A stretch of 64,000 nt of DNA from Sphingobacteriales bacterium (GCA_031424975.1 JANPIL010000141.1:7293-71292); one strand, 5' to 3'; positions 1 to 42,466 are shown, counted from the stretch's first letter. Translations and numbers: made by a program. Notes: a model not told the origin generated them from the sequence alone.

Positions 1-1641
1 AAGGTCTTTGCCTTCAAAATGAAAGTGCATTTCCTTCCGGTAGCGTTCACCTTGGAAAGCCTTTTTGTAAAGCATTTTCCAAGGCTCCCTCATATCCACG
101 GGAAACTGTTCGATTATGTTTTTGCCCGGTTCCAGTTGCGCGCCGAACAATGACCGGCAGCCACGCTGCAAACTGGTGTTCACGATCATGATTTCATGCT
201 TGCGGTTCACCACCCAAATGCCATCGGCGGTGTTTTCAATCAGGGCTTCCAAGTTGGCCTTATCCTTTTCAATGGAAAACTGGATTTGCTTCTGCTCGGT
301 GATGACCGTCACATTGACCAATATCTGGCTGACCGAACCGTCAGGGTGGCGGCTCATGACCACTACCCGCCCCGAAACCCATTCAACCTGTTTTGTGGCG
401 TTATACACGCGCAGTTCCACATTGTAATGGTCGGGACTATCGGTTTCTGCAATTTTCTGGCGCAGTTCCTGTAGCCTGGGCACATCTTCCTCATGCACGA
501 ACCATTCGTGTATGGTGGAAAAAGGGGTAAATTTTTCTGCCGGATACCCGAATATATTTTCCCGATTCAGGTAGATTATTTTCTGTTCGGGCAGTTGCTC
601 CACGAAAACAATGTCCGGTGAGTTTTCCGCGAGTTTCCGGAACCGTTCCTCACTTTGCTGCACGGTTTCGAGGTTGCGCAGCCGCTCTTCTTCAATGGCG
701 CGACGGGCTTCCAGCGTGTCGTAAAAAAACTTCGTGAGCTGCATTTTGCTCTTGTCGCGTTCGGTTACGATGCTGATCAGGTTGGTGGCAATGCCAACGC
801 AATCTGTTTCAAAACCGGTCAGCGTGTGCGGCTCATTGGCGTAGATGCAAAACAGGGCGGTTACTTCCTGTTTGGCAGACAATACCGGAACCGCCCAGCA
901 CGAACGCAGTTTGAAAGCCGCCAGAAAGGGCTGCATTTCAGGATAGTCGGCAGTGGTGTCAATGTCGGCAAAGCCTTCCATTTGGCTCGAACGCACCGCT
1001 TTTGACCACGGTGCCGAGTCTGGCTGACGAAACGAATGCCCGATTTCGCGTTTGAAGTTCTCGGGCAGGTTTGGCGCGCACAACAGCGACAAACGGTGTT
1101 GGCCAAGGTCGTAAAGCATGACGGCGCACCGGATTTTCGGATTCAGCACCTCCACGCCCTTGCACAGCTCGCCACAGATGAAATCCGTTGATACGTTTTT
1201 GGCGGTGTTTTCCAAAATATCCTTTTGGAGTGCCAGCAGTTTTTGTGACTGCACTTGTTCGGTCACGTTCTGCACCATTACCAAACGGTCTTTATGACCT
1301 TCAAGTGATTGGGTTTCAGCCGTAACTTCCACGTATATGAGCTGCCCGTCTTTGGCACGGTGCCGCCAAATACGCTTGGGTTCGTGGGGTTCGCCGTGCT
1401 TTACCCGTTCAATCTCCTGACAAAGTGCGGGAACATCTTCGGGCGGACGGATATCGGCGATTGTCATCTCCGCGAATTCTTCCTTGGTGTATCCGTAGAG
1501 CCGGATTGCCGCTTCATTGACTGCCACAAAGCGGAGCGTTTCCAAGTCGTACGTCCACATGGGCATCGGGTTCCGGATGAACAGCAATTCGGATTCATGC
1601 ATGGCCTCTTCCGTGTTGTTGATGTTGTATGTCGTCACCAT
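1..1641 (-). CDS. PAS/GAF-domain sensor protein (probable histidine kinase), continues off the left edge
   Basis: Hand translation gives an open frame from ATG 1641 (MVTTYNI..) to base 1. PAS signatures: NPMPMWTYDLETLRFVAVNEAAIRLYGY, WRHRAKDGQLIYVEV, EERFRKLAENSPD. A GAF-like segment is present. Absent from the ORF track because there is no stop in the window. Confidence 0.8.
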   Translation of the reverse strand, partial: MVTTYNINNTEEAMHESELLFIRNPMPMWTYDLETLRFVAVNEAAIRLYGYTKEEFAEMTIADIRPPEDVPALCQEIERVKHGEPHEPKRIWRHRAKDGQLIYVEVTAETQSLEGHKDRLVMVQNVTEQVQSQKLLALQKDILENTAKNVSTDFICGELCKGVEVLNPKIRCAVMLYDLGQHRLSLLCAPNLPENFKREIGHSFRQPDSAPWSKAVRSSQMEGFADIDTTADYPEMQPFLAAFKLRSCWAVPVLSAKQEVTALFCIYANEPHTLTGFETDCVGIATNLISIVTERDKSKMQLTKFFYDTLEARRAIEEERLRNLETVQQSEERFRKLAENSPDIVFVEQLPEQKIIYLNRENIFGYPAEKFTPFSTIHEWFVHEEDVPRLQELRQKIAETDSPDHYNVELRVYNATKQVEWVSGRVVVMSRHPDGSVSQILVNVTVITEQKQIQFSIEKDKANLEALIENTADGIWVVNRKHEIMIVNTSLQRGCRSLFGAQLEPGKNIIEQFPVDMREPWKMLYKKAFQGERYRKEMHFHFEGKDL

Positions 1642-1932
1642 TAGCTGTTTCGCTATAAAAATAAAATTTTTACTTGTTAAAGAAGAAGGTTTTTTCAGTA
1701 CCGAAAAAATCAACGGGTGGAAATGAGGAAATCAGAAAAAACAGGCCGCTTATCCGCTAAAAAACCCCAAGGCCGAAAAGGCCGGATGTTGCATTCATGA
1801 GCGAATTATCATCTCTGAATCCGACTTTTTGCCACAAAGTAACTTTTGGGCTTTATAGGCGGAATATTGCCCGGAAAACAACTTTTGCGGCCAAAGGAGA
1901 TTACCGGAACCGGCGAATTTGCATCGTTAAAT

Positions 1933-2739
1933 TTACCGGTAAGCGAATATGTTCAGTTGCAAATCCATGGCCGGGGTTTTCCGGTTGGTGCGGTTCACGA
2001 AAGGCTGCTTGCGGTCAGCTTCTGATCGTATGAAGTAGCGAAAACCGTTCCCGGTCAAAATCCGCAGCATTTCGTCGAGTGCCTGGGGCTGCCCAACGTA
2101 GGCATGGTATTCGATAAAAATGTTTTTCACCCGTTGCAAGGCATCGCCGCAATCGCGGATTACGGCCGTTTCCGCGCCTTCAATGTCCATTTTCAGCAAG
2201 TCAATTTCGGTTTCCGCCAACAGCCAATCTTTCAGGCGGATGGCGGAAATCCGCATTTGCCCGGTGTCGGCGGTCATCGCGCCACCATCCGCCCCTTCGC
2301 TGGCAAACGATACGGTGGTGTCGGCAATCCAGACGGCCTTGCCAATCACCTGCACATCGGCAAAGCCGTTGGTGTGCAGGTTCTTTTGCAGCAAAGCCGC
2401 AATTGCCGGGTCGGCCTCAAAGGCTTTGATGCGCGATTCGGGGTATAACCGCTTGAAATACAGCGCATCCAGTCCAATGTTGGCTCCGCAGTCGTAAATC
2501 AGCGGCGCATCACTGTCGGCTTGGAAGCAGTAATTTTCATCGGCAAAGATTTCCTTGAACTGCCACAAAAACGACTGGCAGTCGGGCACATCCATGGTAT
2601 ACTTGAAAAAGCCAACGGTTTTTGGTTCGTACCGCTTCGCATCACCGTACCGGAAAGCGAGTTTCAGAAACATCCGGCTGTTGCGGGTGCGCAGCAAATG
2701 GTACAGGTCTTTGAAAAGTATCTTGAAAAACAAAACCAT
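1933..2739 (-). CDS. FkbM family methyltransferase
   Basis: IYDCGANIG SAM-binding motif, AFEAD, LLKMDIEGAE; start chosen at ATG 2739. Confidence 0.85.
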   Translation of the reverse strand: MVLFFKILFKDLYHLLRTRNSRMFLKLAFRYGDAKRYEPKTVGFFKYTMDVPDCQSFLWQFKEIFADENYCFQADSDAPLIYDCGANIGLDALYFKRLYPESRIKAFEADPAIAALLQKNLHTNGFADVQVIGKAVWIADTTVSFASEGADGGAMTADTGQMRISAIRLKDWLLAETEIDLLKMDIEGAETAVIRDCGDALQRVKNIFIEYHAYVGQPQALDEMLRILTGNGFRYFIRSEADRKQPFVNRTNRKTPAMDLQLNIFAYR

Positions 2740-2876
2740 GGAATCGGAGGAATCAAAAAGGTTTGGACGGGCAAAATAACGAATGAAAAACGGTTTTCCG
2801 CCCACTGTCTGGCACGGGCGTAGCCGCCAAAAACAAAAGGCGGAAGTTTCCAAGGAAACCGCCGCCTAAGCGATTG

Positions 2877-2905
2877 AAAATAGTATGTTTTGAAACACGC
2901 AAACC
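2877..2905 (+). repeat. Motif A copy
   Basis: AAAATAGTATGTTTTGAAACACGCAAACC. Confidence 0.9.
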
Positions 2906-3082
2906 TCAAACAGGCTGCTCTTTGCTTTTCATCCCGGCTGCTGTTTTTTTAAAATCAATGCCGCCGCACGAGCCGCAGCCTTTAGCACAGCCTTGCTTGC
3001 TGGCAAACTGCCCACGCACGGTGCGCAGCAAGTAGCCCAACGCCGCCAAAAATACCAGTCCGACAATGATGTTTTCCCACAT
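2906..3082 (-). CDS. Small FeoB-associated Cys-rich membrane protein-like
   Basis: MWENIIVGLVFLAALGYLL transmembrane segment followed by GCAKGCGSC; the upstream ORF extension is repeat-derived. Confidence 0.7.
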   Translation of the reverse strand: MWENIIVGLVFLAALGYLLRTVRGQFASKQGCAKGCGSCGGIDFKKTAAGMKSKEQPV

Positions 3083-3152
3083 GGTCGTGTAACGCAAACC
3101 GTTTACGGTTGGTTTCCAATGGCCGGGCTTTGCGTGTTCCAGCCAACGGGTA

Positions 3153-3205
3153 GGTTTGGGTGTTTTAAAAGCTGAAAGCCCCGTCTTTAGCGGGGATACT
3201 ATTTT
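3153..3205 (-). repeat. Motif A copy split by a 24-bp hairpin insertion
   Basis: GGTTTGGGTGTTTTAAAAG[3172-3195]ATACTATTTT. Confidence 0.9.
3172..3195 (+). mobile_element. 24-bp hairpin insertion element, copy 1
   Basis: CTGAAAGCCCCGTCTTTAGCGGGG; removing it restores a perfect 29-bp Motif A. Confidence 0.8.
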
Positions 3206-3314
3206 TGCCGAAGGGTAGCCGGACTTTCCAAGTCCGGCAGTTGGGCGCAAACTGTGGTTGCGGGTCGTGGGAGACGACCCGCCATTTGCTTGCCCGACAA
3301 ATTATTGTTTTTCA

Positions 3315-3343
3315 AAAATAGTATCCCGCAAAAACCCCAAACC
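3315..3343 (+). repeat. Motif A copy
   Basis: AAAATAGTATCCCGCAAAAACCCCAAACC. Confidence 0.9.
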
Positions 3344-3351
3344 TGCCTGTT

Positions 3352-4149
3352 TTAAGCCTGCCAATGCTTGGCAATCACTTCTTGCATTTCCGCGTGGATA
3401 TTGGCGGCAGCGGCAATGAGTTTTCCGCCGAACAAATGCCCATCGCCACCGCTAAAATCAGTCACCTTGCCGCCCGCCTCCTCCACAATCAGGATGCCCG
3501 CCGCCATATCCCAAGATTTGAGGCCGAATTCATAAAAACCCTCAAACCGTCCGCAGGCCACGTAGGCCAAATCCACGGCCGCCGCCCCAAAACGCCGCAC
3601 CCCGTGCGAATGGCGCACAAAATCCTGCAAGATGGTCAGGTACACGTTTATCTTGGTCGCCACTTCATAAGGAAATCCGGTGGCAATTAGGCCGTGGGCC
3701 AGCGAGGGTGCGTCGGAAGTGCGGATTTTCTTTTGGTTGCAAAATGCCCCGCCACCCTGCCACGCATAAAAACACTCATCCAGGTTGGGTTCGTAAATCA
3801 CGCCCAGAAGCGGCTGTTTGCCCTGCACCAACGCCACGCTGACACAATACACGGGCAGGCCGTGGATGAAATTGGTGGTGCCGTCGAGCGGGTCAATGAT
3901 CCAGTTCAGCGTGTCCGAATGCTTTTCGATGGTGTTTTCCTCGGTGATGAACCCGGCTTCGGGCACCAGACTGGAGAGGCTGGCCACCAATTGCCTTTCG
4001 GCTTCCTTGTCCACGTACGAAACCATGTCGTTGGCCGCACTTTTGTATTCAATGTTGGCCTTGTCAAACGTGGCCGCTTCCTGCTTCAGGAAAGCCCCCG
4101 TCTTCTTGACAATGGCTATGGTGTCTTGGCAAAGCTGGGATAAGTCCAT
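3352..4149 (-). CDS. suhB: Inositol monophosphatase family protein
   Basis: WIIDPLDGTTNF, RRFGAAAVDLAYVACGRFEG and WDMAAG motifs. Confidence 0.9.
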   Translation of the reverse strand: MDLSQLCQDTIAIVKKTGAFLKQEAATFDKANIEYKSAANDMVSYVDKEAERQLVASLSSLVPEAGFITEENTIEKHSDTLNWIIDPLDGTTNFIHGLPVYCVSVALVQGKQPLLGVIYEPNLDECFYAWQGGGAFCNQKKIRTSDAPSLAHGLIATGFPYEVATKINVYLTILQDFVRHSHGVRRFGAAAVDLAYVACGRFEGFYEFGLKSWDMAAGILIVEEAGGKVTDFSGGDGHLFGGKLIAAAANIHAEMQEVIAKHWQA

Positions 4150-4198
4150 AAATAAAAGCCCCGGAGGGGGAGTTTTTGTTGGCCTGTGCGGGGACACA

Positions 4199-4247
4199 GG
4201 TTTGGTGTTTTGAAAAGATACCTGTCTGCCGACAGGCAGGCTATTTT
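4199..4247 (-). repeat. Motif A copy split by a 20-bp palindrome insertion
   Basis: GGTTTGGTGTTTTGAAAAGATA[4221-4240]CTATTTT. Confidence 0.9.
4221..4240 (+). mobile_element. 20-bp palindromic insertion element
   Basis: CCTGTCTGCCGACAGGCAGG inside the Motif A core. Confidence 0.8.
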
Positions 4248-4262
4248 ACGTTTCTTTCACGA

Positions 4263-5477
4263 TTACGTTTCCTTCACGGGTTGGGGGGCGGTCTGTTTTA
4301 CGGACAGCCGCATCCTAAAAACCAAGAAAGCGGAACGCAGCGCAAGTAACAACACTATCGGAATAAGTTCATAATCAATGCGTTGCGGTATAAATTGCCA
4401 ACTACCGAGCAGCAAAACCAAAAGCCCCAAATACGTGACAAAATAAATGCGGAGCCATGCGGGCTTGTGTTTGCGGAGCAGCCACAGCGCCACCGGAAAA
4501 TGCAGCGGCCACGCCCACCACAAATGCCAGTTTTGCACCGTTGCCCGGTGGTCGGTGCCAAACCACAAAAACGCCAGCAGCCAGCCCAGCAACCCAATCA
4601 CCGAAAAAAGGACGGCATCAAGCCAGAATTGCCGCCCCGTGCCGCGAAACTGCCAGATTGTGATCAGAACGCCAACGGCCAGCAGCAACCAGAACAAAAT
4701 CGTGGGCGTAAGCCCATCGGAAAGGGCAGGGCGCGGCACGGCTTGGAACAGCGTCTGGTGCGTGAGTTCAAATTTTTCGGGCTTGCCGTTGCGCATCACC
4801 GTGGCCGTAGCCGTCAGGTTCATCAGGTTGTCGGGCAAGAACATACTTTCATCAGACGAAGCTGGCTTATCGGCCGGTGAGGAAATGCCCAGGTCAATGC
4901 CAAAATCAGCGTAGTGATTATGTTGCAAATAGCGGTCAATCCACTGCCTGAAGGTCAGGCTGTCAGGGTTTTGGCCGAATTTCAGGCTGTCGCCGCACAC
5001 GGCTTGCAGGGCATCGCGCACGCGGGTGGTGCAATTGTCGTAGAAGTGGTCGTATTTGTAATACCGCTGGTCGGGTTGGTAATTGCGCTGCAAAAACGCG
5101 TACAGCTTGGTCACCTGCGCCGGGGAAAGGTTGAGTTGCTGGGCGGTAACGGTGCGGTTTTCGTACTGTGCGCCGTACACCATGTTCTCGATTTTGCCAA
5201 TTGCCAGCGCGTAAAGCAGTTTCCCACGGATGTATTTGATATAAAAATTGGATTCGTTGAAGTCGAACGTGCCATAATTGTACACTTCATTGAGACCCAA
5301 TTGCGGATCCTGGATCCAGAGGGCGGTATGGCCGAAAACGGAATAAAGTTCCTCGCCCGGCGCAACGGTGACCAACGTGGCGGTGGCTTGCGGCGATAGC
5401 GTAACCAATTGCGCCTGAGCGGGTTGCCAGCAAAAAATAAGTCCGGCGGAAAGAAACAGAAAAATGTTTTTGAGCAT
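4263..5477 (-). CDS. DUF4105 / Lnb-like membrane protein
   Basis: Signal peptide, PGEELYSVFGHTAL, YNYGTFDF, YDNCTTR, four C-terminal transmembrane segments. Confidence 0.75.
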   Translation of the reverse strand: MLKNIFLFLSAGLIFCWQPAQAQLVTLSPQATATLVTVAPGEELYSVFGHTALWIQDPQLGLNEVYNYGTFDFNESNFYIKYIRGKLLYALAIGKIENMVYGAQYENRTVTAQQLNLSPAQVTKLYAFLQRNYQPDQRYYKYDHFYDNCTTRVRDALQAVCGDSLKFGQNPDSLTFRQWIDRYLQHNHYADFGIDLGISSPADKPASSDESMFLPDNLMNLTATATVMRNGKPEKFELTHQTLFQAVPRPALSDGLTPTILFWLLLAVGVLITIWQFRGTGRQFWLDAVLFSVIGLLGWLLAFLWFGTDHRATVQNWHLWWAWPLHFPVALWLLRKHKPAWLRIYFVTYLGLLVLLLGSWQFIPQRIDYELIPIVLLLALRSAFLVFRMRLSVKQTAPQPVKET

Positions 5478-5499
5478 GGTGATAATTTAAAAGGAGTGG

Positions 5500-5533
5500 C
5501 CTCCCCTAAATCCCCTCCAGAGGAGGGGACTTT
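5500..5533 (+). repeat. REP-like palindrome, family CCTCCCC..GAGGGG
   Basis: CCTCCCCTAAATCCCCTCCAGAGGAGGGGACTTT; 32/34 identical to 8990-9023. Confidence 0.85.
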
Positions 5534-5543
5534 TAAACAGGTG

Positions 5544-5572
5544 GGTTTTGGCTTTTGAAAAGATACTATTTT
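5544..5572 (-). repeat. Motif A copy
   Basis: GGTTTTGGCTTTTGAAAAGATACTATTTT. Confidence 0.9.
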
Positions 5573-5668
5573 CTCTGCCCCGTTTCGCAGGGCGATACCC
5601 TGCGTTGATGGATATCGCCCTTTCAGGGCTGTTGGACTGCATTGGCCAGAGGCCGCCCGGGCCGCTTC

Positions 5669-8311
5669 TCATTCGTACATTTCCTTCAGTTTTCCGCTGG
5701 TTTCCTTGTCCCGGATATCCCGGAGCAATTCGGGCACGCCCTCCGACTCATCAAACATGGCCAGCGTCTGATAGGCATTCAATCGCACGTATTCATTTTT
5801 GGCGTTGCGCGCGGTATTTTCAAGGAAACCAATGCCTTTTTTCTGGATTTCGGCGGGCTGCCTGAGCAAATACGAACCGAACAATTGCGTAAATGGATAC
5901 AGGAAGTCAAGGCTGTTGCGTTTGGCTTTTTCCAAGAACCAATCCAACTGTTCGGTTCCGGCGGTTTCGGCGTAGTAGGCGGCAATGGTAAGCGTGATGT
6001 CGCTGCTGGCCGAGTTGCGGAAAGCCGCCAGTTGCCGTTCAGCATCAGCGGGTTGGGTGCTCAGATAGCCGAATAAGGCGATGGAAACCACGTAGTACGA
6101 CGAATCTTTCAACGCCTGCCGGAAAGCGGCTTGGTAATCCTTGTGTTTCCAGCCAATCATCTTGCTCACAGCCTCGGCACGTACGTACGATTTGGGGTCG
6201 GAAACGGCCATTTTTTCCACAACCGTCTCGTAATCAGACAGTTTTACCACCGGTATTTCGGGTAGGTTGCGTATGGCCATCTGCCGGATCACCCAAGAAG
6301 CATCGTGCAGGGCATCGGCGGCCAGCTTTTTTCTTGAAGGTGTGCCAAAATGTCCGGCGGCGGTTTGGGCATTTTCAGACATACTATTTTTGGCGGAGTC
6401 GGCGGGTGGCTTTTCACCGTTTTCATCAGCCACCACTTCAAACAGCTTGTTAAACGCTTCGTAACGAGCCAAGTACTTGTCCGAATGGTAGTATTGGTAA
6501 GTCAGTTCGGCCTCCGTTTTTTCGTGCGTCACCTTGCCGAGCAACTGGGTTTCGGCATCAAAAAGCACCAAATCGGGTTGGGTGGCCGTTGCAAATGCAA
6601 AGGTTTGGTCGGGTTGGTTGATTACAATATCGCGGACGGTTTTTGTGCCGCCCGCCCATATTTCCACTTGCAGCGGCAGGCGGCAGGTTTTGTCATCGCC
6701 GGATATACTATTTTGGGTCTGCACCCGCAATTGTACTTTTCCGTTGGCATAAGTGTGCGAGACTTTCAGTTCGGGATGGCCCGCCGACAGGAACCACTGG
6801 TCAAAAAACCACTGCAAGTCTTGGCCCGTCACCTCTTCAAAGGCCAGGCGCAAATCGTGGATTTCGGCCTTGTTGTACGCGTGTTTTTTCAGGTACGTGT
6901 TCAGCGACTTAAAAAACGCCTCATCGCCCACGTATTTGCGCAGCATGTGCAGCACGCAGCCGCCCTTCTGGTACGAATGCGCATCGAACATATCCTCCTT
7001 GTCGTTGTAGTAATAGCGAATCAGCGGCTCCTGCTTGGTTTGCGCCTCCGAAAAATACACTTCCTGATCCTGTTGCAGATGGTAGTCGGCTTCGGCGCGG
7101 CCCTGTTTGTGTTCAATCCACAAATACTCGGCGTAGGTGGCAAACGCCTCGTTGAGCGGCAGGTTAGACCATGATTCGCAGGTCACCAAATCGCCGAACC
7201 AATGGTGGAACATTTCGTGCGCAATCACATCGTCGTCGTTTTCATCGAGCAGTTGGTGGCGGTCTTTCTGCACCGATTCGCCAAACACCACCGCGCCGGT
7301 ATTTTCCATTGCGCCCGACACGTAATCGCGCACCACCACTTGGGCGTATTTGTCCCACGGGTACGGATAATCCAGAATTTTGGAGTAAAAGGACAGCATT
7401 TCGGGTGTCCGCCCAAAGATATTTTTGGCGTATTTCTCGTACGGTTTTTCAACCAAGTAGCTCAGTTCCATACCGTTCCACTTGTCGCGCACCACTGCAA
7501 ACTCGCCCACGGCCATCATGAACAAGTACGGCGCGTGCGGCTTGTCCTGCTTCCAATGGTCGGTGCGCGTGCCGTTGGCATTGGATTTGGACGAGATCAG
7601 CAACCCGTTGGAAAGCGTAGTGTATTGCTTGTCCACGGTGATGAAAATCTCCTGCGTGGTGCGTTCGTTGGGCGAGTCAATGGTGGGGAACCAGCACGAA
7701 GAAGCCTCGGTCTCGCCCTGCGTCCAGATTTGGCGCGGCTTGCCGGGTTCCCGGCCATCGGGATTGATGAAATACAGGCCCTTGTCTTCGGTAATGGCCG
7801 CACTGCCGCCTTTGGGCAGGTCGTTGGGCTTGGCCACATACCGTATTCGCACCGTGAATTTTTCGTGGCGGGTGTAGGGTTTGGGCAGTTTCAGGGATAC
7901 TATTTTCTGGTCGTACGTATAAGGCAACGTGGTTTTTTTGGCGGCGGCCACCAACTCAACCGACTGTATGTCAAACCCTTTGGCATTGAGTTGCAGCGAA
8001 TCCTGGGCGTAAAAATGCGGCTTCAGCGTCAGCGTTGCCGTGCCCAGCAGGTGCTGCCTGCCCCAATCAAAACTGACTTCCAGTTTGGTGTGCAGTAGGT
8101 CATGTTTGCGGGTGCGTTCGGGTTGGTAGGGCAGCGGCGCGGTGTCGGCCACAAGGGCAAGGGGCGGCGCGGCCAGCGTGTCGGTGGTGTTGCCGGGCAT
8201 TGCCACCGGCACGTTGGCCGTTGAAGTCTGCGCAATCTTGGGGCTTTTGCACGATTCCAGACTGCCCGCGAGCCACGCCAGACAAACAGCCAGCCATAGT
8301 TTTTTGCCCAT
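5669..8311 (-). CDS. M1 family aminopeptidase, lipoprotein, with HEAT-like C-terminus
   Basis: GAMEN and HEMFHHWFG..E motifs; lipobox-like LESC. Confidence 0.92.
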   Translation of the reverse strand: MGKKLWLAVCLAWLAGSLESCKSPKIAQTSTANVPVAMPGNTTDTLAAPPLALVADTAPLPYQPERTRKHDLLHTKLEVSFDWGRQHLLGTATLTLKPHFYAQDSLQLNAKGFDIQSVELVAAAKKTTLPYTYDQKIVSLKLPKPYTRHEKFTVRIRYVAKPNDLPKGGSAAITEDKGLYFINPDGREPGKPRQIWTQGETEASSCWFPTIDSPNERTTQEIFITVDKQYTTLSNGLLISSKSNANGTRTDHWKQDKPHAPYLFMMAVGEFAVVRDKWNGMELSYLVEKPYEKYAKNIFGRTPEMLSFYSKILDYPYPWDKYAQVVVRDYVSGAMENTGAVVFGESVQKDRHQLLDENDDDVIAHEMFHHWFGDLVTCESWSNLPLNEAFATYAEYLWIEHKQGRAEADYHLQQDQEVYFSEAQTKQEPLIRYYYNDKEDMFDAHSYQKGGCVLHMLRKYVGDEAFFKSLNTYLKKHAYNKAEIHDLRLAFEEVTGQDLQWFFDQWFLSAGHPELKVSHTYANGKVQLRVQTQNSISGDDKTCRLPLQVEIWAGGTKTVRDIVINQPDQTFAFATATQPDLVLFDAETQLLGKVTHEKTEAELTYQYYHSDKYLARYEAFNKLFEVVADENGEKPPADSAKNSMSENAQTAAGHFGTPSRKKLAADALHDASWVIRQMAIRNLPEIPVVKLSDYETVVEKMAVSDPKSYVRAEAVSKMIGWKHKDYQAAFRQALKDSSYYVVSIALFGYLSTQPADAERQLAAFRNSASSDITLTIAAYYAETAGTEQLDWFLEKAKRNSLDFLYPFTQLFGSYLLRQPAEIQKKGIGFLENTARNAKNEYVRLNAYQTLAMFDESEGVPELLRDIRDKETSGKLKEMYE
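6686..6714 (-). repeat. Motif A copy in aminopeptidase CDS (degenerate middle)
   Basis: GGTTTTGTCATCGCCGGATATACTATTTT; encodes QNSISGDDKT. Confidence 0.65.
7878..7906 (-). repeat. Motif A copy in aminopeptidase CDS
   Basis: GGTTTGGGCAGTTTCAGGGATACTATTTT; encodes KIVSLKLPKP. Confidence 0.85.
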
Positions 8312-8478
8312 TGGTTTTCTTTTGTTTACTTGGCGCAAAGAAACGGAAAAGTTGGGGGCGTTTCAAAACATTTTGCGTTTGGCGTTTTTCATTGTCCGCC
8401 ATTCCGCAAAGCCCCCGGACACGCCGGTTTATGTCCATGGCCCGAAGGCTGCGGAGAACATTTATTTTATCCAATGCC

Positions 8479-8976
8479 ATGCTCAAAATTACAGTTGCCG
8501 GACGGTATATTTTCAACTTGGATGAAAACGCCCACGCCGGCCATGATATTGCCGAAATCCGCGACGGAGTTTTCCATGTTTTGAAAGCTGGAAGTCCCGT
8601 CTTCAGCGGGAATACTGTTTCGTACAATGCCGAGGTGGTCAGGGCCGACTTTGCCCACAAGAGCTTCACCGTCAAGGTAAACGGCAAGTTGCTGGAAGTG
8701 AAAGCGCACGACAAGTTTGATTTGCTGCTGCAGCAACTCGGCTTGGGCCAAGCCAACGGCACGCAACCCAAAGACCTGAAAGCCCCCATGCCCGGCCTGA
8801 TTCTGGACATTAAAGTGACTGAAGGTCAAGCGGTGCTGAAAGGCGATGTGGTAGTCATACTGGAAGCTATGAAAATGGAAAACGCGATAAAAGCCCCCGC
8901 CGATGGCACTGTGAAGGCCGTGAAAGTGAAAACCGGCGACAATGTGGAGAAAAACCAAGTGCTGATTGTGTTTTAA
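8479..8976 (+). CDS. Biotin carboxyl carrier (biotin/lipoyl-domain) protein carrying an 8-codon repeat insertion
   Basis: KAPMPGLI and EAMKMEN biotinylation motif; insertion at 8588-8611. Confidence 0.9.
   Translation: MLKITVAGRYIFNLDENAHAGHDIAEIRDGVFHVLKAGSPVFSGNTVSYNAEVVRADFAHKSFTVKVNGKLLEVKAHDKFDLLLQQLGLGQANGTQPKDLKAPMPGLILDIKVTEGQAVLKGDVVVILEAMKMENAIKAPADGTVKAVKVKTGDNVEKNQVLIVF
8569..8621 (-). repeat. Degenerate Motif A copy in biotin-carrier CDS, split by a 24-bp insertion
   Basis: GTTTTCCATGTTTTGAAAG[8588-8611]ATACTGTTTC. Confidence 0.7.
8588..8611 (+). mobile_element. 24-bp hairpin insertion element, copy 2 (in frame within a CDS)
   Basis: CTGGAAGTCCCGTCTTCAGCGGGA; 20/24 identical to copy 1, same AAAG^ATAC junction. 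Confidence 0.8.
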
Positions 8977-8989
8977 AGGTCTCCAAAAG

Positions 8990-9023
8990 CCTCCCCTAAA
9001 TCCCCTCCGAAGGAGGGGACTTT
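8990..9023 (+). repeat. REP-like palindrome, family CCTCCCC..GAGGGG
   Basis: CCTCCCCTAAATCCCCTCCGAAGGAGGGGACTTT. Confidence 0.85.
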
Positions 9024-9054
9024 TAAAAGCCTCCCCTTGGGGCTGTTTTTTTCC

Positions 9055-9062
9055 TATCTTTG
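9055..9062 (+). promoter_or_regulatory. Bacteroidota -7 promoter element (pyrH)
   Basis: TATCTTTG matches TAnnTTTG, 28 bp before the GTG start. Confidence 0.65.
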
Positions 9063-9090
9063 CGCAAATTTCCAACAAATACATCTTACA

Positions 9091-9801
9091 GTGAAATACA
9101 AACGGATACTCCTCAAACTCAGTGGTGAATCGCTGGCCGGCAAACAAGGATACGGCATTGATTCCCAAAGGCTTACCGAATACGCAAAACAAATAAAGGA
9201 AGTCGTGGACGCGGGCGTGCAAGTGGCGATTGTGATTGGTGGCGGCAACATTTTCCGGGGTGCCGATGGCGAAAACTCGGGCATTGACCGCGTGCAAGGC
9301 GACTACATGGGAATGCTGGCAACGGTGATTAACGCCATGGCCTTGCAGAGCGGCCTGGAAAAAAGCGGCCTGTTCACCCGCCTCATGTCGGGCATCCGCA
9401 TTGACCAGGTGTGCGAGCCGTTCATCCGCCGCCGCGCCGTGCGCCACCTTGAAAAAGGCCGCACCGTGATTTTCGGGGCGGGCATCGGCAACCCGTATTT
9501 CACCACCGACACCACGGCCAGCCTGCGCGCCATCGAAATCGAGGCCGATGTGGTGCTCAAAGGCACCCGCGTGGACGGCGTGTACAGTGCCGACCCCGAA
9601 AAAGACCCCGATGCGGTGCGCTACGCCACCATCACGTTTGAGGAAGTATATGCCAAAGGGCTGAATATCATGGACATGACGGCCTTTACGCTGTGCAAGG
9701 AAAACAACCTGCCCATTATTATCTTCGACATGAACAAGCCCGGCAACCTGTATAACCTGGTGAAAGGCGAGGACGTGGGTACGCTGGTAACGATGGGTTG
9801 A
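9091..9801 (+). CDS. pyrH: Uridylate kinase
   Basis: [28 protein letters not shown]; GTG start 9091. Confidence 0.97.
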
Positions 9802-9874
9802 TTCTTGCGAGTCCACAGACCACGGTCGGCAGTCCACAGGTAAACCGTAGGAGCCGCCTAATTGACTGTTGGCG

Positions 9875-9903
9875 GGTTTGGGCTTTTTAAAGGATACTAT
9901 TTT
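9875..9903 (-). repeat. Motif A copy
   Basis: GGTTTGGGCTTTTTAAAGGATACTATTTT. Confidence 0.9.
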
Positions 9904-9976
9904 AGCCAACAGTTCACGTCCGACAGTCCACTGAAAAAAACAGATTGATACTGACAAACTACCGCCGCCGAGTTAG

Positions 9977-9997
9977 CCTGCCTGCCGGACAGGCAGG
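9977..9997 (+). repeat. Variant of the 20-bp palindrome
   Basis: CCTGCCTGCCGGACAGGCAGG. Confidence 0.7.
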
Positions 9998-10101
9998 GAA
10001 TCTCGGAACATGGGCGGCACGAGATGGGAATCTCGCGCCAGCGGGAACCGCCTGATTTTTCAATACCCACCACATTGGTGGTTTAAACGCAAAACAATCT
10101 T

Positions 10102-10662
10102 ATGGAGGAAATACAATTTTATCTGGACGAGGGCAGGGAAGACATGGAAAAATCCCTGAGGCACACGTCAAGCGAACTTGCCCGGATCAGGGCGGGGCGG
10201 GCCACGGTACACATGGTAGACGGGCTGATGGTTGAATACTACGGCTCGCCCACGCCACTGAGCCAGATGGCTTCGGTTACCGTGCCCGACTCGCGGACGC
10301 TGGCTATCAAGCCCTTTGAAAAGAAAATGGTGGGCGAAGTGGAAAAAGCCATTCGCAACAGCGACTTAGGCGTAATGCCCCAGAACGACGGCGAGACGGT
10401 GCGCATCAGCATTCCGCCGCTCAGCGAGGAACGCCGCCGCGAACTGGTGAAACGCGCCAAAAACGAGGTGGAAAGCGGCAAGGTCAGCATCCGCACTGTG
10501 CGCAAGGAAACCAACGAAGCCCTGCGCAAATTGCTGAAAGAAGGCGCATCGGAAGACGATGTGAAACGCGCCGAGGAGAAAGTACAAGCCCTGACCGACC
10601 AGTACATTGCCAAAGCCGATGAGATGGCGGGTAAGAAGGAAACTGAGATAATGACGATTTGA
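10102..10662 (+). CDS. frr: Ribosome recycling factor
   Basis: IRAGRA, IPPLSEERRRELVK. Confidence 0.97.
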   Translation: MEEIQFYLDEGREDMEKSLRHTSSELARIRAGRATVHMVDGLMVEYYGSPTPLSQMASVTVPDSRTLAIKPFEKKMVGEVEKAIRNSDLGVMPQNDGETVRISIPPLSEERRRELVKRAKNEVESGKVSIRTVRKETNEALRKLLKEGASEDDVKRAEEKVQALTDQYIAKADEMAGKKETEIMTI

Positions 10663-10712
10663 TTTTCCGGCAGTTATTCGCCATTTGAAACCCGGCTATG
10701 GCAAGATAGACG

Positions 10713-10741
10713 GGTTTCGTATTTTGAAAGGATACTATTCT
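10713..10741 (-). repeat. Motif A copy
   Basis: GGTTTCGTATTTTGAAAGGATACTATTCT. Confidence 0.85.
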
Positions 10742-10788
10742 TGCAGGAAGTACGCAGATTGCTTGGTTGGCACTTAATTGCCAATTAC

Positions 10789-10970
10789 GCACAACGGACA
10801 GGGCTTGGCGAAGTGTGGGAAATAGAATTCCGTCCGCCCGCGGCTATCTGAAACCAAATTTACAAATAGAAGCTAATTATTTGCACATGGCTAAATTAAT
10901 AACTTCCTGCTGGATATGAAGCCAAATTGAAAAACAAAAAGTTGAAACACAGCTTCCGTCAGTCCACCAA
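10789..10970 (-). other. Truncated attC-like site (array 1)
   Basis: Begins GCACAAC and shares GGGCTT..GTGTGG..AATAGAATT..GTC..GCCCG and CTTCCGTCA with the 11644 and 12520 sites; the second arm is missing; right limit approximate. Confidence 0.5.
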
Positions 10971-11121
10971 GAAAAACTTATGATTTCTTTTGCTTTTAAG
11001 CATTCTACTATTTCTACTGTATGATGTTGACTATGGTGAATAGTATTTATATAAAATTCTAATCCTGAACTGTCTGGCCGTAGTGTCCGCTACGACCAGA
11101 CCCAGCCGAGTAACTGTAGTG

Positions 11122-11307
11122 TTATACCTTTCGGTATAACGTACCAATGACAAGTAAAATAAAGCCAATTAGTAACATTTCATAGTTATACTTTGACAAT
11201 ACATCTATGTGCGTGTAATGTCCCAAAATGCCTAAAAAGCCGACGATGAGGGCAAGAACCCAGACTATTTGGTTGGGTGCACTGGGCATAAATTTTTTGT
11301 TTGCCAT
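11122..11307 (-). CDS. Small two-transmembrane membrane protein
   Basis: 61 aa with two hydrophobic segments; AT-rich. Confidence 0.6.
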   Translation of the reverse strand: MANKKFMPSAPNQIVWVLALIVGFLGILGHYTHIDVLSKYNYEMLLIGFILLVIGTLYRKV

Positions 11308-11511
11308 GGTTATTTGATTTAATTAAGGTTAAATTATTCTTTATATGAACCGTTTATTGAGTAACAATGACTCCCTTCAAAAGTAGGTCTATTTGAATTC
11401 TCAATCAAGGTAGATTTGTTCCAAACTTTGAGTTAACCAAATTTCTTCTATGGAGCTGCTATACACTGATAATCAACAGATTGTGTATTTTTCCAATAAA
11501 GCCGAACCCAG

Positions 11512-11540
11512 AAAACAGTATCTTTTCAAAACGCAAAATC
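11512..11540 (+). repeat. Motif A copy
   Basis: AAAACAGTATCTTTTCAAAACGCAAAATC. Confidence 0.75.
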
Positions 11541-11643
11541 CCTTTTTGTCAAAACAAACAGAGAACGTGCATTGCACGGATGAGAATGCAGTTTAAACAA
11601 GTTTTTAACTAACTGATTATCAACCGATAACAACTCTAAGGAC

Positions 11644-11839
11644 TGCTAACGCGCAGGGCTTTGCGCAGGTGTGGAATTAGAATTGCGTCTGCCCGGAACC
11701 GATGCCGGTTGAAAAAATAAAGTTAAAGTCAAGTGAAAAAATTCACTGATGTACGTCAAGCCCGAACAAAAGCTGAATAGAATTACAAATGCTCATTGTT
11801 ATTCCGTCTGCCCAACTTGCACAAAACCCCATGTTAGTG
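11644..11839 (-). other. attC-like recombination site (array 1)
   Basis: TGCTAAC...GTTAGTG ends; complementary arms GGGCTTTGCGCAGGTGTGG / CCCAACTTGCACAAAACCCC; stop codon overlap. Confidence 0.7.
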
Positions 11840-12493
11840 GCTGGCTCTGTGTTTTCGCATCGCATTATGTATGTCATTAATTAGTTTTTCAATTTTTGTC
11901 AATGAGTATTTACAAAATTCGCTGTCAATTTGTATGTTAAAATTTTCCTCGTCATATTCTGTTAATTCTATCGGACTATACTTTTGACAAATCTTTATTG
12001 TATCTATTGTCGATTTTGATAAGATTCCATCAGAATGCACAAATACATTCCGTATCTTATTAAAATCATTTACTTCTGTCCAAGTTTCAGACTCAAATGG
12101 CTCTATAATGTTACATACTTTTTTCAAATACAAGCTACTTCTAAATATTCCACTCCCACTAATATCTTTCAGAGTTAATTTATAAGAGTTTGATTTTTTT
12201 AAATTTTTACATATTTGGTCAAGTGAATTTTCAAGTAGAAAGTAGGTACTCAAAAATATTGATTTCCATAGTATCATAGGAAAAATTCCTTCATATTGAA
12301 TTTTCTTGCCAAATCTTTCGTCAATTACATCTTCATCAGTACTGCTTTCCATTGCAGTAATTTTTGTCTTTAAAAATACTTCTGTTTCACTTATTAAATC
12401 TTCATAATGTTTCAACTCATCATATACTCCGTGATTGAAGAAAAAATGATAAGTATAAGTGTCTTCTTCTTGTTTTTTTAAATCTTCGTCCAT
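11834..12493 (-). CDS. Hypothetical protein (cassette ORF, array 1)
   Basis: 219-aa AT-rich ORF; its TAA stop overlaps the end of the attC-like site. Confidence 0.75.
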   Translation of the reverse strand: MDEDLKKQEEDTYTYHFFFNHGVYDELKHYEDLISETEVFLKTKITAMESSTDEDVIDERFGKKIQYEGIFPMILWKSIFLSTYFLLENSLDQICKNLKKSNSYKLTLKDISGSGIFRSSLYLKKVCNIIEPFESETWTEVNDFNKIRNVFVHSDGILSKSTIDTIKICQKYSPIELTEYDEENFNIQIDSEFCKYSLTKIEKLINDIHNAMRKHRASH

Positions 12494-27841: not shown

Positions 27842-27887
27842 AAAACGCCCAAACCCACCCGTGGCTGCGGGTGGGTTTGGGCGTTTT
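27842..27887 (-). terminator. 20-bp perfect hairpin built from the Motif A arm, downstream of the TolB-like gene
   Basis: AAAACGCCCAAACCCACCCG-TGGCTG-CGGGTGGGTTTGGGCGTTTT. Confidence 0.6.
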
Positions 27888-27902
27888 AAAAGATACTATT
27901 TT
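27874..27902 (-). repeat. Motif A copy
   Basis: GGTTTGGGCGTTTTAAAAGATACTATTTT. Confidence 0.92.
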
Positions 27903-27937
27903 TAGGATGCCGTTTCCGGAAAGTGTTTTTTTGGCGG

Positions 27938-37266: not shown

Positions 37267-37321
37267 GGCCTCCCCCCTGTCTGCCGACAGGCAGGCAACC
37301 CCCTCCGAAAGAGGGGGCTTT
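37267..37321 (+). repeat. REP-like palindrome, interrupted by the 20-bp element
   Basis: GGCCTCCCC[20 bp]CAACCCCCTCCGAAAGAGGGGGCTTT. Confidence 0.8.
37276..37295 (+). mobile_element. 20-bp palindromic insertion element
   Basis: Identical CCTGTCTGCCGACAGGCAGG inside a REP-like element; uninterrupted comparator at 38583-38617. Confidence 0.8.
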
Positions 37322-42395: not shown

Positions 42396-42424
42396 GGTTT
42401 CGCATTTTTAAAAGATACTATTTT
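42396..42424 (-). repeat. Motif A copy (last before the motif desert)
   Basis: GGTTTCGCATTTTTAAAAGATACTATTTT. Confidence 0.9.
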
Positions 42425-42466
42425 CCAGCCTTCAATGCGGTGTTCCGTACTAAACCGCCAGCCGGA

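Follow-up and report, generated by a model that had tools for sequence, protein, structure and literature searches.

A 24-nt hairpin element inserted at fixed bases of a dispersed repeat, and in frame within a biotin-carrier gene, in a Sphingobacteriales genome

How can the same 24-nt hairpin come to be inserted twice at the same base of a dispersed repeat, once in the repeat itself and once in frame within a gene for a biotin-carrier protein? The question is raised by a stretch of 64,000 nucleotides from Sphingobacteriales bacterium (GCA_031424975.1 JANPIL010000141.1:7293-71292), hereafter the window, which corresponds to C141:7293-71292 of a 4.6-Mb assembly (G000; 515 contigs, 53% G+C). We refer to the hairpin as hp1 and to the 30-nt repeat that hosts it as Motif A. 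An earlier interpretation made from the DNA alone (the sequence-only reading) had proposed that hp1 is a minimal element mobilised by a Y1 transposase, that it targets Motif A and that, being eight codons long, it is tolerated inside proteins. We followed hp1 through the genome, its relatives and two protein genes, and we are nearly certain that it is a mobile, site-specific element.

Copies of hp1 and their address in Motif A

Both window copies (copy 1, CTGAAAGCCCCGTCTTTAGCGGGG; copy 2, CTGGAAGTCCCGTCTTCAGCGGGA; Table 1) were found on the + strand exactly where the sequence-only reading had placed them. A degenerate search of the window returned these two 24-mers only, against an expectation of 0 from dinucleotide-preserving shuffles, and the 21-nt core of Motif A matched 11 times, again with 0 expected. 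Each copy is preceded by ...AAAG and followed by ATACT..., and the proposed AAAG^ATAC junction (the caret marks the point of insertion) is free of target duplication at both copies and in their empty relatives. Both 24-mers fold as a stem of 5-6 bp, with DNA folding energies of -5.6 kcal/mol for copy 1 and -4.9 kcal/mol for copy 2. Removal of copy 1 restores Motif A, and removal of copy 2 leaves ...FHVLKDTVSYN... in the encoded protein.

Genome-wide, hp1 has an unpaired 7-nt head, CTRAAAG, followed by a GC-rich hairpin of 5-6 bp, and the 3' foot of the stem is the end of the element. There are approximately 215 copies in the genome (about 150 simple copies and 64 that carry a second element, hp2), all within Motif A or Motif-A-like sequence, and 90 of 152 are identical to the consensus. 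Of 166 well-formed copies, 87 are at a position that we call site a, GGGTTTGGSSTTTTTGAAAG^hp1^ATACTATTTT, and a second position, site b, AAAATAGTATCTTTCAAAAAG^hp1^GCCAAACCC (AAAG^GCCAAACC), holds 65 of the 152; the other well-formed copies belong to variant subfamilies with these contexts or match by chance. On the opposite strand of Motif A, site b mirrors site a, and hp1 always lies directly 3' of the quasi-palindromic core. Positions -4 to -1 before hp1 read AAAG in 94-100% of copies at sites a and b alike, whereas these positions are far less constrained in empty Motif A copies. The AAAG^ATAC junction was thus correctly identified as a target within Motif A, but it is one of two. The change of the outer stem pair from C:G in copy 1 to T:A in copy 2 is also real, although it marks a subfamily (TCCCG...CGGGA, about one quarter of the site-b copies) and was not made in place.

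The precision of insertion is evident from the distance between GGGTTTGG and ATACTRTTT, which is 12 nt in 2,683 empty copies, 36 nt in 145 copies with hp1 added, 60 nt in 65 copies where hp1 has an extra 24 nt, and 33 nt in 46 copies to which a 21-nt palindrome has been added. Approximately 10% of eligible Motif A copies are occupied at site a and 5% at site b. Outside Motif A there are 44,519 AAAG sites and 336 sites with the core CTTTNNNAAAG, yet only about one hp1 copy is located there, and the hits outside Motif A proper are two coding sequences that resemble it. A target of only 4 nt, as for IS608, was rejected on these counts of free AAAG and core sites. No hp1 doublets were detected (the closest pair has a spacing of 146 nt, and more than 700 nt separate all others), and we found no Motif A copy doubly occupied by hp1.

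The consensus of Motif A is GGGTTTGG-SS-TTTTNNAAAG-ATACTATTTT, written in full as GGGTTTGGSSTTTTNNAAAGATACTATTTT, and its centre, CTTTyngAAAG, is the quasi-palindrome. The genome has 2,946 uninterrupted copies (<=4 mismatches), 75% of which lie outside crude calls of open reading frames (ORFs) that span 79% of the genome. We found no preferred orientation relative to neighbouring genes, and copies were present in all intergenic types; the lack of orientation bias toward gene starts and this broad occupancy ruled out a directional promoter. Within the genus, Motif A occurs in four of six genomes (1,885 copies in G000, 2,000 in G003, 748 in G004 and 76 of a variant form in G001), and it was not found outside the genus among the 30 relatives compared. 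Further examples in the window are at 5554-5574, 9885-9905, 27884-27904 and 42406-42426. The first of these adjoins a sub-threshold Rfam match to the Acido-Lenti-1 small RNA (5586-5630, + strand; 29.8 bits against a gathering score of 37, E = 0.0015).

The distribution of hp1 could also reflect selection for usefulness, with the hairpins kept as, for example, weak bidirectional terminators or RNA stability elements. The majority of copies are intergenic, and hp1 followed by ATACTATTTT was flagged as terminator-like; on the other strand, CTTTCAGCTTTT comes after the hairpin. However, the terminator scan of hp1 was not above the shuffled expectation, the stem has only 5-6 bp, and an Rfam scan of window positions 1-12000 (E <= 1) returned no family covering hp1 or Motif A. 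Copies are also found inside genes and, between gene pairs of every kind, in both orientations, and selection leaves base-exact junctions unexplained. We therefore consider this explanation very improbable.

Empty sites, nested elements and inserts in genes

A sister species, represented by the metagenome-assembled genome (MAG) "Sphingobacteriales bacterium GLR81_GL56_UP_2_metabat_29" (G003), allowed us to compare filled and empty sites, with about 370 kb compared for loci taken from G000 to G003. Both assemblies are fragmented MAGs (97% and 88% complete for G000 and G003, respectively) with crude gene calls. The copy 1 locus is syntenic in G003 (91% identical) and has the same Motif A without the insert, GGGTTTGGGTGTTTTAAAAGATACTATTTT, which is the motif that had been predicted by removing copy 1. 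Variants specific to the recipient Motif A are retained beside the insert, e.g., GGGTGTTTTAAAAG at copy 1, which is also present in the empty motif of G003. Ten G000 hp1 loci have a G003 counterpart, and hp1 is present in G003 at three of these and restricted to G000 at seven. In the other direction, 26 G003 loci were compared with G000; 17 were shared, eight were cleanly empty and one had a 21-nt palindrome (pal21) in the same motif. Every filled/empty junction is exact to the base, none of the pairs has a target duplication, and 161 of 215 empty G000 motifs have conserved their length in G003.

Among 30 relatives, hp1 was found in G000 and G003 only, and exact hp1 words were absent from the other species-representative genomes among the matches listed, apart from one chance hit. 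A search for related loci returned distant relatives only. The 748 Motif A copies of G004 contain no hp1, no hp2 and no insert of 17-45 nt at site a. The hp1 inserts are recent and independent of Motif A.

Nesting extends this pattern to a third level. The second element, hp2 (CTAAAAGTTCCGCCAGAGGCGGAA; opposite strand CTAAAAG-TTCCGCC-AGA-GGCGGAA), is also 24 nt long and has the 7-nt head CTRAAAG in common with hp1 but a different hairpin. All 64 hp2 copies in G000 are located after GCTAAAG^ in the loop of hp1, and G003 has six copies (examples are in C97 and C358 of G000 and at loci L144 and L147 of G003). Five hp1 loci common to the two species hold hp1 without hp2 in G003 but both elements in G000, and hp2 thus entered an existing hp1 in place. 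The palindrome pal21, CCTGCCTGCCGGACAGGCAGG, has about 54 genome copies and is placed at AAA^GATAC, with two additional contexts that include an unrelated palindromic one; its presence is polymorphic between G000 and G003 in both directions. A 20-nt relative (pal20) has a second window copy at 37276-37295 in addition to that in Table 1. The site on the other strand, the number of copies, the nested hp2 and the pal20 at 4221-4240 all go beyond the sequence-only reading.

These comparisons bear on the possibility that hp1 is a passenger that entered Motif A once or twice and was then amplified as a composite with it. Motif A itself, at about 2,900 copies, must have proliferated, and element and flank variants are linked, as amplification of a composite would predict. 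As the sole process it is contradicted by orthologous Motif A copies that differ in occupancy between the species, with some filled only in G000 and others only in G003. The gain of hp2 in situ, variable Motif A positions that are as diverse beside hp1 as in empty copies, and the insert in the biotin-carrier gene, at native coding sequence conserved in all orthologues, also argue against it. We give a passenger origin very little credence.

Copy 2 lies in a biotin/lipoyl-carrier (BCCP-like) gene, in a syntenic arrangement of M1 peptidase, BCCP-like gene and UMP kinase. Close orthologues are all 157 aa long, compared with 165 aa here, and the alignment has an exact gap of eight residues (FHVLK--------DTVSY versus FHVLKAGSPVFSGNTVSY), as expected from the removal of copy 2 to give LKDTVSYN. 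The orthologue DNA at this site is CATGTTTTGAAAGATACTGTTTC, whereas in the window AAAG and ATAC are separated by 24 nt, and the 157-codon form is found in four same-genus genomes. The native codons of the landing site, HVLKDTVS, match the Motif A core and right arm at 19 of 20 positions, and the genome has 17 matches to TTTNNNAAAGATAC outside Motif A, this site among them. Empty alleles were thus found in related genomes for copy 1 and copy 2 alike; a metagenome scan for filled and empty BCCP alleles gave 0 matches. A low-confidence model from AlphaFold2 (pLDDT 55) suggests that the insert would be within a coil between two strands. The M1 peptidase also differs in length (889 versus 880 aa), but this difference was rejected as an insertion and attributed to a start-codon artefact.

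The same BCCP site has been entered by a different element in a sister lineage. On a metagenome contig (L008:3001-3543, ENA ERZ27272737) encoding a protein that is 90% identical, pal21 is in frame at AAA^GATAC and encodes PACRTGR. Thus pal21 and hp1 entered independently at the same codon position, each with its own characteristic offset.

Sixteen copies of hp1 are inside crude long ORFs, and we checked one of these. In a gene for an alpha-2-macroglobulin of 1,870 aa with Pfam domains (G000 C292:4105-9717, L178), hp1 is in frame and encodes LKVPSSAG. The protein reads ...YPYGCVEQT...ADLAKIVSSGK-LKVPSSAG-AKPVAAAT, with the insert shortly after the thioester motif and a Motif-A-like stretch at KIVSSGK. 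The DNA is AAAATAGTATCTTCCGGAAAG^hp1^GCCAAACCC, i.e., site b. At exactly this point, orthologues from four genomes of the genus are shorter by 8-10 residues, and their Motif-A-like stretch reads KSLSKGKAN. The copies in the BCCP-like and alpha-2-macroglobulin genes both belong to the TCCCG...TCTTCAG...CGGGA subfamily, and they are two verified cases of the tolerance within proteins that had been proposed. Because hp1 is eight codons long and open in four of six frames, intragenic copies can survive in tolerant loops.

Additional features of the window are listed in Table 1. A further hairpin family, AAAAGCCCCCTCTTTCGGAGGGGGTTGGGGGAGGCC, has about 117 genome copies (e.g., G000 C141:45877, window position ~38585) and is in many cases linked without a gap to Motif A or to pal20. 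In G003, a gene for a REP-associated tyrosine transposase (RAYT; REP, repetitive extragenic palindrome) at about 1300-2080 of locus L054 (G003 C144) is bounded by inverted repeats of ~110 nt, the outermost 30 nt of which are Motif A copies abutting the repeat at either side. The inner 66 nt of this repeat are found about eight times in G000 without the RAYT gene. The arrangement may hint at how Motif A arose.

Table 1. Positions in the window of hp1, its host sequences and neighbouring features.
Feature	Position	Strand	Remarks
Host Motif A, left 20 nt, AGGTTTGGGTGTTTTAAAAG	3152..3171	+	AAAG at end, hp1 directly after
hp1 copy 1, consensus form	3172..3195	+	7-nt head CTGAAAG, stem CCCCG(T)/(G)CGGGG, loop; at site a of Motif A
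Host Motif A, right 10 nt, ATACTATTTT	3196..3205	+	
GTAG-tagged REP, GTAGCCGGACTTTCCAAGTCCGGC	3215..3238	+	Separate repeat family, adjoins copy 1
Empty Motif A variant, inverted	3315..3344	-	Forward strand is GGTTTGGGGTTTTTGCGGGATACTATTTT
Motif A holding the 20-nt palindrome CCTGTCTGCCGACAGGCAGG (pal20, 4221-4240)	4199..4250	+	Palindrome at GATA^CTATTTT
Biotin/lipoyl-carrier (BCCP-like) gene, 165 aa	8479..8976	+	Biotinyl domain at residues 99-164
Landing site of copy 2, left flank, GTTTTGAAAG	8578..8587	+	Native coding sequence resembling Motif A core
hp1 copy 2, in frame	8588..8611	+	Subfamily TCCCG...TCTTCAG...CGGGA, head CTGGAAG; encodes AGSPVFSG; next codon changed from D to N
Landing site of copy 2, right flank, ATACTGTTT	8612..8620	+	Native coding sequence resembling Motif A right arm

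Candidate enzymes and routes of movement

The genome encodes seven Y1 (PF01797) proteins, which we assigned with NCBIfam models to four RAYTs (NF047646 above cut-off; C319, C17, C453 and C448) and three IS200-like TnpA proteins (C368, C345 and C219). Two of the RAYTs and one IS200-like gene have orthologues in G003 that are 93-98% identical, with values of 95-98% for the two RAYTs. Of the six genomes of the genus, G000, G003 and G001 have Y1 genes and G002, G004 and G005 have none; across these very few genomes, inserts occur only where Y1 genes do. G004, which has Motif A but neither Y1 genes nor inserts, fits a requirement for Y1. Each Y1 gene in G000 is flanked by its own low-copy inverted hairpins, and the RAYT-associated REPs have 2-18 copies. 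The GTAG-tagged REP family (GTAGCCGGACTTTCCAAGTCCGGC), with about 108 genome copies, had no RAYT within 1.5 kb of the copies examined; this family is thus not beside RAYTs either, and adjacency to a Y1 gene is a weak test in this genome.

The architecture of hp1 is similar to that of known Y1 substrates. The guide of a REP is the tetranucleotide that abuts the stem on its 5' side, with A3G4 of GTAG selecting a CT cleavage site (PMC8266576), and 23-nt REPs, or those whose stem has 5 bp, serve as substrates on single-stranded DNA (PMC8266576, PMC3333891). Both hp1 and hp2 have AAAG abutting the stem and CT at the start of the element. The last base of the head also covaries with the first base of the element (C...G 52, T...A 6, mixed 0), and a small ...AAAA subfamily begins with TT. 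An HUH/Y1 enzyme supplied in trans, which would be one of the four RAYTs or the three IS200-like TnpAs, may recognise the head plus hairpin on single-stranded DNA, cut after AAAG and at the foot of the stem, and then transfer the strand as TnpA-REP does in vitro. The same AAAG rule holds for the entry of hp2 into the loop of hp1. Mobility, precise insertion, the target rule, nesting and tolerance in frame are established by the data above, whereas the enzyme, its single-stranded DNA intermediate and either copy-and-paste or cut-and-paste movement are what we infer from these parallels. We consider movement by a Y1 enzyme to be the best available mechanism, at odds that are even at best, and our probability for the full explanation, in which hp1 is a non-autonomous site-specific element mobilised in trans by Y1, is approximately 0.5. 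Of the original proposal, the independent mobile insert that targets Motif A has been borne out, whereas mobilisation by Y1 is plausible, on the circumstantial evidence of the anatomy and of the co-occurrence of Y1 genes with inserts.

Several observations weigh against a Y1 enzyme. The sequence-only reading had suggested looking for TnpA(Y1) or RAYT genes flanked by the same hairpin, but hp1 flanks none of the seven Y1 genes in G000 and none of the five in the G003 loci examined. The junction of hp1 is G^CT, 5' of CT, unlike the cleavage by E. coli TnpA-REP within C|T (PMC3333891). The tag is AAAG and not GTAG or CGTC, and hp1 is a single hairpin that occurs as singletons, with no left-end/right-end pairs or REPIN doublets. 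Both flanks of the target matter for hp1, contrary to what the IS608 rule would lead one to expect. The covariation between the head and the first base could stem from a single sublineage. No strand bias was seen relative to local GC skew or gene strand, in a comparison of low power (median skew 0.01, 515 contigs). Finally, a C in the hp1 loop always occurs with an ATACTG flank (p = 3e-4), and given this linkage a homology-assisted route with co-copying of flanks is also possible. Pairing between loop and flank, or a pseudoknot, was rejected as the cause because it cannot apply to site b, and we treat the association as linkage only.

Such a homology-templated route would need no dedicated transposase and could involve short-tract gene conversion, homing-like break repair or template switching, with the Motif A flanks as homology. 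It would account for the importance of both flanks (about one occupied site outside Motif A versus 43 expected if the core CTTTNNNAAAG sufficed), for the near-exclusive host context of each element (hp2 in hp1 in 64/64 cases) and for element variants being linked to flank variants. The BCCP and alpha-2-macroglobulin sites resemble Motif A on both sides, and no transposase gene is associated with hp1, as this route would also have it. The homology arms, however, are only 10-20 nt, and copy 1 shares an arm of as little as 4-6 nt with most donors, yet the rare variant of the recipient is kept up to the junction. The insert directly follows AAAG at site a, at site b and in the hp1 loop, which are unrelated to one another, and the head CTRAAAG is common to hp1 and hp2 while their hairpins are not, which indicates an enzyme that reads sequence. 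The hundreds of insert-free Motif A copies in G004 are also difficult to reconcile with copying by homology. On balance, we regard this route as possible but doubtful.

A sequence-reading enzyme could also be a dedicated nuclease or recombinase outside the Y1/HUH class that binds the palindromic core of Motif A and nicks each strand 3' of AAAG. The two insertion positions mirror each other across the core CTTTNNNAAAG, as would be the case for a dimer on a palindrome, at least three different hairpin families have inserted within a single 10-nt stretch of Motif A, and no Y1 gene is linked to the abundant families. A candidate gene for such an enzyme was not identified, the arms of the core are only 4 nt, and the genome that has Motif A without Y1 genes is also without inserts. 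This makes a non-Y1 enzyme improbable in our view.

Returning to mobilisation by Y1, a more specific and speculative form would place hp1, hp2 and the 20-21-nt palindromes in a hierarchy of hyper-parasitic micro-elements, with hp2 only in hp1, hp1 only in Motif A and Motif A throughout the genome, written by a domesticated single-strand HUH enzyme (a RAYT). The address would come from the guide in the head and from a folded or protein-bound Motif A core. We hold this as a tentative extension and think it rather unlikely.

Related systems and significance

In outline, elements like hp1 are known as REPs with their RAYTs, as small dispersed repeats (SDRs) of cyanobacteria and as intragenic palindromic elements (PMC3733652), and the closest are REP/RAYT systems and SDRs. 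As with REPs and REPINs (PMC3333891, PMC8266576, PMC3116915, PMC3733652), hp1 is within 20-40 nt and forms a short GC-rich hairpin; abutting its stem on the 5' side is an unpaired, conserved tetranucleotide that may correspond to the REP tag. Both are lineage-restricted and of high copy number, mainly extragenic with some intragenic copies, and have RAYT genes in the same genome. The REP tag is GTAG or CGTC and that of hp1 is AAAG, which shares its last two bases, AG, with GTAG. REPINs are inverted doublets, whereas hp1 copies are singletons that flank no RAYT. Unlike REPs, hp1 is confined to one address inside another repeat, with its junction 5' of CT.

Elhai and colleagues reportedly described, in 2008 (Genome Res 18:1484), cyanobacterial repeats (SDR4-6) of 21-27 nt that are capable of forming hairpins, are present or absent at conserved sites without target duplications and are embedded in other repeats. 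To our knowledge, the mechanism that mobilises these SDRs was never found. The elements described here (24 nt for hp1 and hp2, 21 and 20 nt for pal21 and pal20) are likewise near-identical, present or absent and located in repeats, as are the SDRs of heterocystous cyanobacteria. The host of hp1 is a Bacteroidota MAG and those of SDRs are cyanobacteria, and the sequences are presumably unrelated. Beyond what is described for SDRs, the host repeat of hp1, the cut positions on both strands, the three-level nesting and the in-frame gene insertions are defined.

IS200/IS605 elements and palindrome-associated transposable elements (PATEs) resemble hp1 in the lack of target duplication, a fixed tetranucleotide that the insert follows immediately, a guide-like tetranucleotide on the 5' side of a hairpin and seamless empty sites. 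IS200/IS605 elements transpose by a peel-and-paste mechanism on single-stranded DNA. They have left and right ends, compared with one hairpin in 24 nt for hp1, which also differs in that its target is recognised through both flanks, its cognate TnpA was not found and strand bias was not detected. We rejected hp1 as a miniature inverted-repeat transposable element of a DDE transposon; the filled/empty pairs have no duplication and the head is unpaired. Rickettsia palindromic elements (RPE) and intragenic REPs are, like in-frame hp1, palindromic repeats kept as an extra peptide (PMC3733652), but RPE-1 is 100-150 bp, versus 24 nt, and hp1 enters genes only where the codons resemble its host repeat. 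Insertion sequence (IS) elements that target REPs are cited in PMC3116915, e.g., IS1397, which inserts into palindromic units, and those of Tobes and Pareja (2006). The target in those cases is also another dispersed repeat, but REP-targeting IS elements are full-length, with their own transposase and target duplications, whereas the hp1-type invaders are non-coding and 20-24 nt long.

In the literature that we searched, we found no description of a head other than GTAG, of hairpins as singletons, of a palindromic core targeted on both strands, of nesting at three levels or of convergent hits on a single codon. At 20-30 nt, mobile DNA is about as small as DNA that moves can be. The present case is unusually tractable, with a defined host repeat, defined junctions, a 7-nt head, sister species that differ at dozens of sites, the G004 control and seven candidate enzymes. 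It also reveals a route into coding sequence, in which entry occurs only where codons mimic the repeat and the inserts are then kept as loops of 7-8 residues. For genome analysis, hp1-type repeats can pass for indel errors or regulatory motifs, and they probably contribute to the fragmentation of the assembly into 515 contigs. If the hierarchy written by a RAYT is correct, this would be natural insertion of 20-24-nt hairpins at an address of ~20 nt, on either strand and in genes as well. It would then give mechanistic access, for the first time, to mobile DNA as small as SDRs and provide an example of Y1 transposition with a minimal substrate, i.e., one hairpin and no second end.

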